Virus record (IMG/VR): IMGVR_UViG_3300043447_000250
Span: 27,214 to 91,213 of that record
Source of the DNA: a virus
Taxonomy: Duplodnaviria; Caudoviricetes
Direction: 5' to 3' (one strand)
Length of the DNA: 64,000 bases
Position numbers and translations under genes: made by a program
The notes under the pieces: generated by a model
Database searches by the model: none
What the model was told of the DNA's origin: nothing
What the model saw: only the letters and a program-made list of their open reading frames with translations
Shown: positions 41,489-54,618 of the stretch, piece after piece
How the letters are laid out: each line of letters starts with the position of its first letter
How positions within the stretch are numbered: position 1 is the first letter of the stretch

Positions 41489-41625
41489 TGTTCAAGTATA
41501 GCACTGAACTTTGCGGGGGATAGGAAAGATAGTCCCAATTACCCCTAGTATAAACACATAGGCATATACCCTATAAGACCTTAAGATGGATCAAAATAAG
41601 GTGTTGGAATACCTCAAGATGATAC

Positions 41626-41680
41626 TTATCCACAGGGTTTGATATGCTGAAAATGTTAGTTATCCACAGGTTTATCCACA
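41626..41680 (+). promoter_or_regulatory. three DnaA boxes
   Basis: TTATCCACA at 41626, 41660, 41672. Confidence 0.8.
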
Positions 41681-41718
41681 TATAAATGTTACTGATTATA
41701 TTATTAGATGTCCTAGAA

Positions 41719-41744
41719 GTGGAGTGAAGTGGAGGATAGTGGTT
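41719..41744 (+). promoter_or_regulatory. MraZ-type operator (three GTGG repeats at 10-bp pitch)
   Basis: GTGGAG-tgaa-GTGGAG-gata-GTGGTT. Confidence 0.6.
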
Positions 41745-42165
41745 TATTGAGCATTTTCATAAGGCCATCGTAATGTCAAGTGGCCCCAAACCCCCTATAC
41801 CAAACATTCAAACCTTTGTCAAATAGCCAAACCATCTGCATTATATACCAAACATAAGTGTTTGTCAACTTTGATTTGAAACAAATCCTTGTGACAAATT
41901 TGAATGATTTTGTCGACATTTGTTTGATAATTAATTATTATTTAAATAAATTAAAAAGAAATAAATAAAAAACAATTTGTTTTATATATTGTTTTATATC
42001 AGGTATTGTTTGTTATATAGGGGATGGGGGATCAGATGATGTTTGATATCCCCTGGCAAAATGGCTAGGTACGGGGAAGAAAAAGCCTCTTCGTAATGTC
42101 TCTGGGATTATACCACCGACCACTGACATGCCTGGTACGGGGAAAAATTTTACGCCTTCGTAATC

Positions 42166-42363
42166 TTATTTTGGGGAAACAGAATCGGTCTTCGTAATAC
42201 CCTGGGGATCCTGATCATGGAGATTTTCGGGGGAAAATGAAAAGAACTTAGACAAACCCATAGTATGAGTAATAGATACAAAGCCATTCCACATAGCATT
42301 AGAGAATGCTTCATACTCTTTTGGTTGGTTCTTTGCATATCTAGCAAAGTGTCTAGGGCTCAT
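42166..42363 (-). CDS. hypothetical protein (leaderless, MSPRHFAR...)
   Basis: TGGTATAAT before the ATG at 42363. Confidence 0.55.
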   Translation of the reverse strand: MSPRHFARYAKNQPKEYEAFSNAMWNGFVSITHTMGLSKFFSFSPENLHDQDPQGITKTDSVSPK

Positions 42364-42579
42364 AAAATCATTATACCACCCAATAGGTTTGTCTGACAAA
42401 CAAGGTTTGATATGGTATAAGCCATGATTGGGGAAAATAATTGATCCTTCGTAATCTAGATCTGGGAAAAATATATTTGACATCGTAATGTTTGTTTGGT
42501 AAAATGTTTGGACATATTGGTTTGAAATGTCTAGGCACCTTCGGGGGCCCCAAGCCCAAACGGGCCCAGGGCTCACCTA

Positions 42580-42873
42580 CTATTCTGGTTTATTCTTTTT
42601 ATTGTATGCGTACTCTAAAACATCTAGAAGATTTGGATCACCAAGACCATCAACTTCTTCTTCAGAAATCTCTATCAAACTCAAAAACATTTTAAATGTT
42701 TCTTCTAACATTTCTTCACCAACAGGGCTTAGTTCTTTTACCAAACCTTCTGCAAGCATATATCCCATTGGACATCCAATGTCATTGTATTCCATGAACT
42801 GTTCAAAGTCTTCATCATTACGGAACTCAATCCATAACTGTCCTACGATCCCCGCCTTGTCTGCAAGATTCAT
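42580..42873 (-). CDS. hypothetical acidic protein
   Basis: RBS; F.EYNDIG.P motif. Confidence 0.7.
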   Translation of the reverse strand: MNLADKAGIVGQLWIEFRNDEDFEQFMEYNDIGCPMGYMLAEGLVKELSPVGEEMLEETFKMFLSLIEISEEEVDGLGDPNLLDVLEYAYNKKNKPE

Positions 42874-43095
42874 TTACTTCCCCTTCATCTCTTCCATAAG
42901 TTTATCATACTCTTCTTGTGCGGTCAAGGCTAAAACATCAAACCTCTTGAAAACGATTACTGGTAGATTTCTGACTAAATAATATCCAACCCTCTCAAGG
43001 TCAATAGAAAAATCTTCCGTCAATAGTTTTGCGAGTTGTTCTGCTTTCCTAGATTCTTTGTTGTGCGTTGGTGTTGCTGATAATCGTCTAGCCAT
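42874..43095 (-). CDS. hypothetical protein
   Basis: RBS aggag; TTGCCC-17-TACAAT promoter. Confidence 0.7.
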   Translation of the reverse strand: MARRLSATPTHNKESRKAEQLAKLLTEDFSIDLERVGYYLVRNLPVIVFKRFDVLALTAQEEYDKLMEEMKGK

Positions 43096-43187
43096 AGAAC
43101 TCCTCTCCTTTACATTGTATCAAATTTAATGGGTAGGGGCAAATCTGCAGGACTTAAACCCCTACCCGCATAGGATGACCCCTCGCC

Positions 43188-43547
43188 CTATGCTATCTCA
43201 ACTAAACCATATGCATTAATAAATGCTTCCCATGCTACGGGCACAGCACCGTTATCAAAATCTCTAACAGTCTTGTTAACAAAGTCAATGACTACTGACT
43301 GCTCTCCCAAATCAAAACTATCACCTGAGATAGAATAAATTCCAAAGCCGTGCTCTTCTAGAATGCTATCTTGAATAAGATAACTAATAATCATTCTGGT
43401 GCCGTACACTGAATCATTCCAGCGAGGCTTAGCATGGTGCATGGCCTTAGCAATGTCTACCTGCCATGAGTCTTGTCCCCAGTGACTGTATAGGACCACG
43501 GAAGAGTCAGTGCCATCCTTGAATACAAAATTGATTCTTGCTCCCAT
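43188..43547 (-). CDS. hypothetical protein
   Basis: MGAR...LYSHWG motif. Confidence 0.75.
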   Translation of the reverse strand: MGARINFVFKDGTDSSVVLYSHWGQDSWQVDIAKAMHHAKPRWNDSVYGTRMIISYLIQDSILEEHGFGIYSISGDSFDLGEQSVVIDFVNKTVRDFDNGAVPVAWEAFINAYGLVEIA

Positions 43548-43852
43548 TACTCTACATCCAATCTCTCTAGCGCTACAATACTAATGTCATATAGGATTTC
43601 TTTATATACTTCGTCCATCTCATCTGTATCAGTATTAGCCTCAAAACTCATATACTGACCTGTTGGCTCGTGTATTACTTCAATTGACCATCTAGGCATT
43701 CTGTCCCCCAAACTCTAGGGCATAGAGTTCTTCATTGGTCATGCAACTAGGGCAAGTGCCAAAGGGTTCATATCTATCGCAATAATTATACATATTCTCA
43801 AACTCAGTACCGCAATTAGCACAAACATATGGCTTGCTAGTTTTCTCAGTCA

Positions 43853-52593: not shown

Positions 52594-52622
52594 TATTTAG
52601 AACCTTTCTTTAGTTAATTCTC

Positions 52623-52760
52623 TTAGAGGGTTTCTAGGTAGAAACCTGTGTTGCACTTTGGGCAAACACTTTCATACTGGCTTTCTTCGCCATAGACTGT
52701 TACAACTGGCTCAGTGCATGAATCGCACCAAACCTCTGTACCTTCATTAAATGAGTTCAT
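52623..52760 (-). CDS. small Zn-ribbon protein
   Basis: RBS aaggag; CDSC...CPKC. Confidence 0.65.
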   Translation of the reverse strand: MNSFNEGTEVWCDSCTEPVVTVYGEESQYESVCPKCNTGFYLETL

Positions 52761-53265
52761 CTTGAACTCCTTTCTTTGTTGATAACCTTTATCAACCTTG
52801 TATGTATACAAGTCTAGCAGGGGGGTCTGACAAATGCAGGGGTACGAATCGCCCAAAACGGACATTTAGAAAATAAATTTTTGTTATAAATAAGTATTTG
52901 ACTAGTCAGACTAAAAGATTATTCACGACACGCCGCAAGTGGACTTGACATGATGCGCCCCGAAGGTGCCTCGGGGCCCCATTTACGCTCAGGGCTTATC
53001 GTCAAAGATTTTTAGCAATTCCTCACATTGCTCATCAGTTAAATGTGTTATGTCAATCGCCTTTTGAAATAGATCCGTTATTTCATTCATTAGTTATCGC
53101 TCCAATGCATTTTGATGTGTTGAACCTGTTCATATAAATCAGCGGTAGGTTCAGCCATGCCATATGGATTTCCCTTATCTTCAATTAAATCAAGAAGATT
53201 AGATAAAGCGGTTTCAAGAAGGACGACCTCATCAATGTCGCCTAGCAATTCAATTTTTTTCATTA

Positions 53266-53442
53266 TTATTTTCCACCTTTCAAGTGACCAGAAATTCCCA
53301 ATGCATCACATGACACATGGAGCACTACGCTTTTAGGTAGTGAATTAGTTAGTGCAGAAATATACTTACGCACATCTGAGGGGGTATTTAGTGCAATAGC
53401 CTTAGTAGTGCCATTGAATGAAGTTAGTTTTAGACTTATCAT
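53266..53442 (-). CDS. hypothetical protein (paralog of 51443-51628), absent from the ORF track
   Basis: MISLKLTSFNGTTK...VSCDALGISGHLKG. Confidence 0.7.
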   Translation of the reverse strand: MISLKLTSFNGTTKAIALNTPSDVRKYISALTNSLPKSVVLHVSCDALGISGHLKGGK

Positions 53443-53695
53443 TTATTTTAGACCTTTCGTTTTTTTGATAATTCGCTTATTTCCACAAGCCTTGCAAATA
53501 AGATGGAAAGTTTCTTTAAACCATCTTTCGCTCCACAATAGAGAGCCACAATTAGGACAACCCATTACTTATTACCTACCATTCTAGTCATACGGTTAAA
53601 TTCTCTACGCCCATTTACAATAGTAGAGGGGCATACTACGCAGAAGATATCTTGAGGGTCTGCTATGTACCCACATTTTAAACATTGGCTAAACA

Positions 53696-53878
53696 TTAGT
53701 TAGACACCTTCCAATCTGACCAACCACTAAGGCGGTCTGAATCATAGTCCATATACCATGATTCAATATTCTGCTCACATGATTCACAGAATGTATAAGC
53801 CACATCATTGTGGAATGAGGTAGACTCTTTATGAGCCTTATGAGAAACGCATATTGCGTTAGTTGTTAGTGTAGTCAT
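53696..53878 (-). CDS. hypothetical protein
   Basis: RBS aaggtgg; FCESCEQNIE. Confidence 0.65.
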   Translation of the reverse strand: MTTLTTNAICVSHKAHKESTSFHNDVAYTFCESCEQNIESWYMDYDSDRLSGWSDWKVSN

Positions 53879-54015
53879 TGTATGACCACCTTTCTTTTAA
53901 ATAACCAAGATTATTTATCTTGATACATAGTATCCTAACACATACCACTGACAAATGAATGTGGACATTATGGAATAAAACGGACATATAGGATATGTGA
54001 TATAGACCACATTAG

Positions 54016-54036
54016 TTATCCACATAGTTATCCACA
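54016..54036 (+). promoter_or_regulatory. two DnaA boxes
   Basis: TTATCCACA at 54016 and 54028. Confidence 0.75.
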
Positions 54037-54071
54037 GGGGCCTCGGGGCCCCAATGTGAGGCACATCACAT

Positions 54072-54120
54072 ACGACACGCCGTGTTGGTTCTTGACTTTT
54101 GGGGTATTATATGTTATTAT
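54072..54120 (+). promoter_or_regulatory. promoter with upstream GACAC (WhiA-type) element
   Basis: acGACACgccg ... TTGACT-17-TATTAT. Confidence 0.6.
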
Positions 54121-54417
54121 TCTCTTATAAGAAAAATTAAATAGGGTTAAATAAGGTTAATGAGCCTACCAAATAAACCTAGATTCTAGGGTGAGCGTAG
54201 CAAATAAGTGACCTATATCACATAGTACACGCTCCACATAGTGAGACTACTAGTGAGTATACTAGACAGTAGCGAATATGTCTGCTAGTATTACTATATA
54301 CAATTAAATAAGAAAGAAAATCCTAGTGAGCCCTATATGTGATAGTATAGGCAAATAACCTAGGCAAGGAAAACAGTTAGCAAAGTGCTAACAGTATTAA
54401 AAGAAAGGAAGTCCAAA

Positions 54418-54618
54418 ATGACTTCACTATATAACTACATTGAAAAGGGTGACACAATCACCTTCCCTACATCTATGAACCTTGTTAAGTCAGGTGTAGT
54501 AGAGTCACTACGCAAGTGGAATGGGTCTGCCATGCAGGTGCGTTGCACTAATGGTGCTAAGTTTGAGATTAGTCGCTATAAGACTGATTATGTTCTCACA
54601 GTTGAGGAGGGTAACTAA
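54418..54618 (+). CDS. small SH3-like hypothetical protein
   Basis: RBS aaagga. Confidence 0.65.
   Translation: MTSLYNYIEKGDTITFPTSMNLVKSGVVESLRKWNGSAMQVRCTNGAKFEISRYKTDYVLTVEEGN

Follow-up and report, generated by a model that had tools for sequence, protein, structure and literature searches.

The spacers between the small genes in one block of a lake actinophage genome may act as regulated promoter cassettes. The DNA analysed here, called the window below, is a stretch of 64,000 nt that makes up the last 64 kb of the 91-kb IMG/VR virus record IMGVR_UViG_3300043447_000250. In the block at 41.5–54.4 kb of the window, short motifs that resemble the binding sites of host regulators are stacked in front of promoters. 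We give a probability of roughly 55% to the reading that these cassettes tie a programme of small genes to host physiology and that their sites are read by host factors.

The completeness rating of the record is 83%, and the GC content of the window is approximately 39%. The record codes for WhiB, a DnaE-type polymerase, DnaB, RecA and 12 tRNAs. Because its DnaE is 55% identical to the DnaE of Stanwilliamsviridae Streptomyces phages and the nearest proteins to its DUF932 protein are actinophage proteins, the record is assigned on protein similarity to an uncultured actinophage. A megablast search of cultured phages gave no match. Every gene at 41.5–54.1 kb lies on the minus strand, and the block as a whole is a leftward cluster of about 40 small genes in roughly ten short transcription units.

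For each motif, three values are given here in turn: the count in the 12.9-kb region, the count in the 78 kb of the record outside it, and the average over 200 dinucleotide shuffles of the region's sequence. Promoters of the form TGTC[AG]G-N10-TAnnnT numbered 8, 2 and 0.28. The palindrome TGTGA-N6-TCACA, a CRP/GlxR-type box, was found 7, 0 and 0.03 times in its exact form and 12, 2 and 0.67 times with at most one mismatch. The values were 5, 1 and 0.28 for the DnaA box TTATCCACA, 3, 0 and 0 for CGGCGTGTCG, and 4, 1 and 0.01 for ATGTCCGWTTT. A preliminary description of this DNA had counted nine TGTCAG-type promoters, 12 CRP boxes, five TTATCCACA, three ACGACACGCCG and four AAAACGGACAT, and had noticed almost none of them elsewhere. 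All of these counts were reproduced, the ninth promoter being a TGTCCC variant at 50228, and the other 78 kb held almost none of the motifs. Fewer than one of each is expected from the shuffles, which do not match the observed numbers. The region is strongly enriched in every motif, and hardly any copies lie outside it. A generic promoter and terminator scan gave 60 promoter-like matches against 44 expected and 23 terminator-like matches against 8; it was unspecific and was not used.

Relatives were gathered by a protein search with DUF932, which returned 537 related viral contigs, of which 80 loci (1.37 Mb) were kept. Removal of near-duplicates left 66 loci, which together with the window form a set of 67 sequences (1.15 Mb); unless all 80 loci are named, counts in relatives refer to this set. 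The relatives had at most 7% of 21-mers in common with the window. The motifs are kept among them and the spacer sequence is not, which agrees with the conservation that the preliminary description had proposed as a check. All 80 loci contained at least one exact CRP box (355 in total), and they held 365 DnaA boxes and 648 copies of TGTCRG-N10-TAnnnT, 595 of them on the gene strand. An unbiased 10-mer scan of the relatives recovered the same motif families and added ATTACGAWG (GACATTACGA) and the hairpin word CCTGAGCA.

The eight TGTC[AG]G-N10-TAnnnT copies all lie on the minus strand (Table 1), where they read TTTGTCAG(TGG/ACC)-N-TAnnnT. A Shine-Dalgarno sequence and an open reading frame (ORF) follow within 26–61 nt in seven of the eight. 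The promoter of the DUF932 gene lies inside the longest ORF of that gene; the start of that ORF is wrong, and the true start is the ATG at 47115. In the relatives, a spacing of 10 nt between TGTCAG and TAnnnT gave 473 sense matches against 34 antisense. Other spacings gave 2–134 sense matches (median 17), with the highest values at N16 (134) and N5 (66), and the N16 peak may come from a second TAnnnT just beyond the -10 box. The promoter logo was AwwTGTCAG-tcc-...-tGnTAnAaT with unconserved flanks, and no conserved -35 element was seen upstream of TGTCAG. TTGTCA as a -35 box was ruled out, as its spacer to the -10 box would be only 11 nt.

This layout resembles that of the RecA-NDp promoters, which in Mycobacterium and further Actinobacteria depend on PafBC and are read by sigma adaptation; in these, the motif tGTCgg(N10)tA(N3)T carries a -26 element at -23 to -28 and there is no -35 box (Mueller et al. 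2021, PMC8635444). The window promoters fit that motif exactly in geometry, with TGTC[G/A]G, exactly 10 nt and tAnnnT, and no -35 hexamer lies 16–19 nt from the -10 box. Upstream of recA in seven large actinobacterial genomes, TTGTCAGTGG or TTGTCGGTG-N8-TAnnnT was found at 86–153 nt, and four window promoters carry TTGTCAGTGG, the very word that stands before recA in Streptomyces-like genomes. The present promoters differ from the described ones in being phage-borne, with 8–9 copies in 12 kb, in being followed mostly by CCC instead of GTG, and in having an extended -10 box and stacked upstream sites.

The CRP boxes are tied to the promoters by distance. The 67 sequences contained 299 exact boxes, and a promoter on the sense strand lay 30–140 nt downstream of 67% of them, namely a TGTCAG promoter in 129 cases and a canonical one in 71. 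The distance from the box centre to the first -10 base showed peaks at 52, 62–63 and 72–73 nt, which persisted when the DUF932 spacer was left out. Judged from these positions, the boxes stand on one helix face upstream of the promoters. Their central bases favour t/a, like the GlxR-type consensus; the GlxR/Crp consensus has t/a in its centre, as in TGTGAnnTAnnTCACA. The arrangement is similar to class I CRP-dependent promoters and to the GlxR/Crp sites of Corynebacterium and Mycobacterium, where TGTGA-N6-TCACA also lies upstream at distances that step by 10 nt. It differs in that the partner here is often of the -26 type, not -35/-10, and also in position: if a transcript begins some 12 nt past the first -10 base, the boxes here would be centred near -64, -74 and -84 instead of -61.5 and -71.5.

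The order of the modules was read from the spacer before DUF932 in the 66 loci. One order was found throughout: hairpin, DnaA pair, CGACACGCCG, CRP box, ATGTCCGWTTT and promoter, each upstream module being present or absent from phage to phage. The preliminary description had spoken of modules in shuffled order; because the order is constant and only presence varies, the spacers are better called modular and combinatorial. On the minus strand of the window, a cassette consists of a stop codon, a hairpin, an optional DnaA pair, an optional CGGCGTGTCG, an optional CRP palindrome, an optional ATGTCCGWTTT, a promoter, a leader of 26–61 nt, a Shine-Dalgarno sequence and the gene. Two promoter classes occur in the cassettes: the -35-less class, in which exactly 10 nt separate TGTCAG from an extended -10 box, and the canonical class TTGACn-N17/18-TAnnnT. 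The second class appeared in the relatives as TTGACA-N17/18-TAnnnT, with 191 and 125 copies.

Table 1. Predicted regulatory features of the region, in window coordinates
Feature	Position	Strand	Remarks
-26-type promoter TTTGTCAGTGG-N8-TAGGAT	53932..53953	minus	ORF start 53878
-26-type promoter TGTCAGACC...TGCTAGACT	52811..52832	minus	ORF start 52760
-26-type promoter	51690..51711	minus	exact CRP box centre 52.5 nt before -10; ORF start 51628
Variant promoter TGTCCC-N10-TAAGAT	50207..50228	minus	also readable as TTGAAT-N17-TAAGAT
-26-type promoter	48642..48663	minus	ORF start ATG 48600
-26-type promoter TTTGTCAGTGG-N8-TAGAAT	47811..47832	minus	ORF start 47774
-26-type promoter of DUF932 gene	47149..47170	minus	gene start ATG 47115, end 46100
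-26-type promoter	44833..44854	minus	ORF start 44806
-26-type promoter	42107..42128	minus	no ORF behind; would fire into repeats and AT-rich origin-like stretch
Canonical promoter TTGACT-N17-TATTAT	54092..54120	plus	rightward genes; divergent from 53953 promoter
Canonical promoter TTGACT-N17-TAGTAT	51808..51836	minus	tandem with 51711 promoter
Other canonical promoters	starts 50637, 48778, 45890, 44384, 41868		
CRP/GlxR-like palindromes TGTGA-N6-TCACA, 16 nt each, n = 12	45250..54222		exact (7): 45250, 45932, 47236, 50266, 50679, 51740, 54055; one mismatch (5): 48712, 48798, 51868, 53996, 54207
ACGACACGCCG / CGGCGTGTCG, three copies	50701, 52925, 54072 (span 50701..54082)		usually beside -35 box
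ATGTCCGTTTT, four copies	starts 47211, 51861, 52865, 53987 (span 47201..53987)	minus	AAAACGGACAT at 47201, 51851, 52855, 53977
TGACYRGTCA, four copies	48842, 50330, 50356, 52899		
Pair of perfect DnaA boxes TGTGGATAA	54016..54036	minus	TTATCCACA at 54016, 54028; 12 nt start to start; upstream of 53953 promoter, divergent control region
Three perfect DnaA boxes	41626..41680	minus	TTATCCACA at 41626, 41660, 41672; spacing 34 and 12 nt; part of candidate origin
AT-rich stretch, ~90 nt	41920..42010		between direct repeats and DnaA boxes
Six strand-specific ATTACGAWG repeats, iteron-like	41766..42489	minus	starts 42489, 42455, 42198, 42164, 42097, 41774
Post-stop-codon hairpins CTGAGCA...TGCTC	46068-46089, 47274-47297, 47873-47894, 50741-50762, about 48392 (span 46068..50762)	minus	
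tRNA-Asp(GTC)	45987..46061	minus	tRNA match; in spacer

Two further words belong to the cassettes. Three of the ATGTCCGTTTT copies (47211, 52865 and 53987) start 33–41 nt before TGTCAG, and the one at 51861 stands about 25 nt before the -35 box of the 51836 promoter. In the relatives, ATGTCCGWTTT is strand-specific and starts 24, 33–34 or 40–41 nt before TGTCAG. CGGCGTGTCG adjoins the -35 box in the relatives in either orientation. A conserved 16-mer, TTATTTGCTAnGCTCA, was also observed on either strand, with 37 copies in 26 of the 67 loci against 0 expected; in the window (51720–54384) several copies lie in the divergent control region at 53988–54384 and around 51760.

The regulators named in the preliminary description fared differently. 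PafBC, CRP/GlxR and DnaA are upheld at the level of the motif, and MraZ and WhiA are not. For DnaA, the relatives hold 307 perfect boxes, while no variant with one mismatch exceeds 66 copies; the consensus extends to aGTTATCCACAgG, and pairs lie 11–12 nt apart. MraZ sites are three or more direct GTGG-type repeats with a period of about 10 nt. The GTGG triple at 54036–53996, which had been taken for such a site, consists of two DnaA boxes and the half-site of a one-mismatch CRP box, with TGTGG starts 12 and 13 nt apart, a period that does not suit MraZ. The WhiA site is a short GACAC core. The word proposed for WhiA contains GACAC, a core too short to tell from chance, and its conservation spans ACGGCGTGTCGT, giving a word of 10–12 nt, far longer than GACAC, that stands beside -35 boxes. 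The GC islands (GGGSCC) and the TGACYRGTCA palindromes listed there are real in the region, and conservation of either sequence was not found in the relatives.

We suggest the following mechanism. Host RNA polymerase with its housekeeping sigma factor would fire the TGTCAG promoters only together with active host PafBC, a WYL heterodimer that responds to single-stranded DNA by becoming active. The output would be modulated by a CRP/GlxR-type protein of the host, sitting on one face of the helix some 52, 62 or 72 nt before the -10 box, and likewise by host DnaA at the paired boxes. The small-gene programme would then be gated by DNA status, by the cyclic AMP (cAMP)/carbon state and by the replication state. 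The motifs with their enrichment, conservation, order and phasing were observed, as was the absence of matching domains encoded by the phage; which proteins bind, and to what effect, is a proposal. A search for WYL, HTH_Crp_2 and Bac_DnaA_C domains was negative in the record and in five relatives with a completeness rating of 100%, and the two small-gene arms, with 71 ORFs, contain no DNA-binding domain that could be recognised. For the three words with a match to host consensus sites, this absence speaks for readers from the host, and it would still allow small phage proteins of unrecognised fold.

Several results weigh against this mechanism. Under the strict patterns used, 27% of the exact CRP boxes are without a recognised promoter. 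After TGTCAG, most phage copies continue with t-C-C-C, against g-t-g in the host. Among 20 small genomes (1.3–1.8 Mb) none has the motif before recA, and in a separate sample 15 of 16 Actinomycetota genomes of that size are without a WYL gene. A streamlined lake actinobacterium, if it is the host, may be without PafBC. The Streptomyces relative BillNye has neither TGTCAG promoters nor CRP boxes, though Streptomyces-like genomes use the motif at recA. The combination ATGTCCGWTTT-N10-32-TGTCRG-N10-TAnnnT was absent from 400 Actinomycetota genomes apart from a small contig in one metagenome-assembled genome (MAG; G002), which is probably a mis-binned phage. The -26 geometry also fits a phage-encoded activator of the T4 MotA type. 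A small genome of low GC content (G222), in which two WYL genes stand in tandem, was considered as a host; it has TTGTCAG-N10-TAnnnT before DprA, DUF763 and cytochrome genes and was unconvincing as regulon or host. The low GC content of the phage is no pointer to a low-GC host, because BillNye has 53% GC against about 68–72% at the recA loci of large Streptomyces-like genomes.

Some of these points suit another explanation, in which the cassettes are regulatory and phage proteins of unrecognised fold read some of the words, or all of them, through sigma appropriation of the MotA/AsiA kind or through the phage WhiB. It would apply most to TGTCAG at -26, ATGTCCGWTTT and CGGCGTGTCG, in which case the words would resemble host sites through convergence or by coincidence. 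T4 middle promoters also have no -35 box, and their activator word stands at a fixed 11–13 nt before the -10 box. The -26 geometry is similar to the T4 MotA box (PMC8635444). No host reader is known for ATGTCCGWTTT and CGGCGTGTCG, the former in its promoter combination is missing from the 400 sampled genomes, and WYL genes are mostly absent from small lake-type genomes. Canonical promoters are present that could express an activator first, and the phage codes for WhiB and dozens of small uncharacterised proteins. MotA and AsiA are encoded by T4, whereas no counterpart was detected in the lake phage, and the early arms and the complete relatives showed no DNA-binding domain. BillNye also has WhiB, yet none of these promoters. 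It is hard to ascribe to chance that three distinct words agree perfectly with the consensus sites of three host regulators, and TTGTCAGTGG is the host recA word. We regard phage-encoded readers as unlikely, though as an explanation to be taken seriously. A sponge or decoy, the second of the two roles offered in the preliminary description, is very improbable. The sites would then mainly titrate host DnaA, CRP or PafBC during phage replication and upset host replication, carbon control or the damage response. The words are perfect-consensus, presumably high-affinity sites, present many times per genome and multiplying with replication; DnaA pairs occur at several places per genome, and about a quarter of the CRP boxes are without a detected promoter. 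Constant order, strand bias and 10-nt phasing to promoters are cis-acting properties that a sponge does not need, and the TGTCAG element is an integral part of the promoter. There are only five DnaA boxes and 12 CRP boxes per genome, and the sites do not show the independence from neighbouring promoters that marks a datA-like titration locus. A missing ORF, cited for a decoy role in the preliminary description, was noted behind one promoter (42128), which lies in an origin-like module. Titration may occur as a side effect, and nothing seen calls for it. The order, strand bias and phasing thus support the first of the two roles, that of regulated promoters sensing host state.

For the DnaA boxes at 41.6 kb a different role is suggested, which is compatible with host-read cassettes elsewhere in the block. 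The triplet, the AT-rich stretch and the six repeats, crossed by the 42128 promoter, could form a DnaA-dependent replication origin, and we hold this proposal to be tenable at somewhat less than even odds. The layout of repeats, AT-rich stretch and boxes is visible in the window, and the order of repeats, an AT-rich 60-mer (73–95% AT) and then 2–4 DnaA boxes was found in six relatives with the strict repeat pattern. The box spacing of 12/33–34 nt recurs at that position in three relatives (L002, L012 and L013). The ATTACGAWG repeats are strand-specific (139 to 3 in the relatives), and the five AAG copies in the window, among them those at 42455, 42198, 42164 and 42097, extend to N12-13-TTTCCCC as far as read. 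BillNye carries four perfect TTATCCACA boxes within 300 bp in a divergent intergenic region (L092 42344–42631; about 119.4–119.7 kb of its record). Against an origin, only seven of the 67 sequences (six relatives and the window) passed the strict repeat test, a skew switch is absent at this point, and in T5 similar box pairs lie away from the origin (Davison, bioRxiv 10.1101/866236). The iss first-step-transfer region of T5-like phages described in the same work is likewise a repeat-rich region of small early genes, where TTATCCACA boxes are paired across a gap of 3 bp (12 nt from start to start). It differs in having eight boxes in inverted repeats, proposed to stop DNA injection, whereas here the pairs lie upstream of individual promoters and one triplet lies in the origin-like module. 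As judged from the layout, an origin is more likely than promoter control for the triplet at 41.6 kb with its repeats and AT-rich stretch.

The CTGAGCA hairpins after the stop codons have a covarying inner stem of 4 bp. Because a T run and a GC hairpin come after some of them, they probably are terminators that close each unit. An Rfam search of the region returned only the tRNA and no match for the hairpins. The lone tRNA-Asp(GTC) lies between a hairpin and a CRP box, distant from the main tRNA array at 33.5–36.3 kb. The ORF with a TipAS domain at 35049–35615, taken at its longest, runs across tRNA-Glu and tRNA-Tyr in the same orientation, and its real start must therefore be sought further downstream. 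A MerR-type DNA-binding part is missing from it.

Contigs of the phage group (L085–L090; G002:C102) were found binned in MAGs named Chitinophagaceae, Acidimicrobiaceae, Polynucleobacter, Saccharibacteria, Bifidobacterium and Arenimonas, which is probably contamination. A WhiB scan of the genome contigs returned only phage contigs mis-binned into unrelated MAGs, and the phage HSP20 had no close match among the 400 Actinomycetota genomes. Two complete relatives (G324 and G327) have direct terminal repeats of 123 and 127 bp with 100% identity at their contig ends. These most likely come from k-mer overlap in assemblies that were circular and do not mark physical ends, so that the place of the region relative to the physical genome ends cannot be read from them. 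In Streptomyces phage records, a DUF932 homologue lies 1.2–2.4 kb from the left end (e.g., Navo, 1219–2241) and at two places per record, probably inside a long terminal repeat. By analogy, the homologous block of the lake phages might be the first DNA to enter the cell.

Phage promoters with sites for host regulators are known: phages of Alphaproteobacteria carry CtrA sites (PMC9437464), phage GIL01 has LexA boxes (PMC4551915), and T5 has DnaA boxes. With CtrA and LexA, as proposed here, sites of a host global regulator couple phage expression to the state of the host. A single regulator is involved in those phages, whereas up to four or five words are stacked combinatorially on a non-canonical promoter in the lake phage. 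The literature was searched for PafBC or RecA-NDp in connection with phages, and neither phage promoters of the PafBC design nor stacked PafBC, CRP and DnaA look-alikes were found described. In a wider and more tentative view, which we think rather unlikely to hold in full, a widespread clade of lake actinophages would carry rapidly rewired multi-input cassettes that integrate single-stranded DNA (PafBC), cAMP (CRP/GlxR) and replication (DnaA), with two words for other readers, as the combinatorial decision panel of a virulent phage with possible secondary titration. The variation in presence and absence at one orthologous spacer represents regulatory rewiring across short evolutionary distances. 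If host proteins do read the sites, abundant uncultured lake phages would time their genes by the DNA damage, carbon state and replication state of the host, and the cassettes would provide a set of small natural variants with which to test sigma adaptation and the rules of activator-promoter spacing in Actinobacteria.

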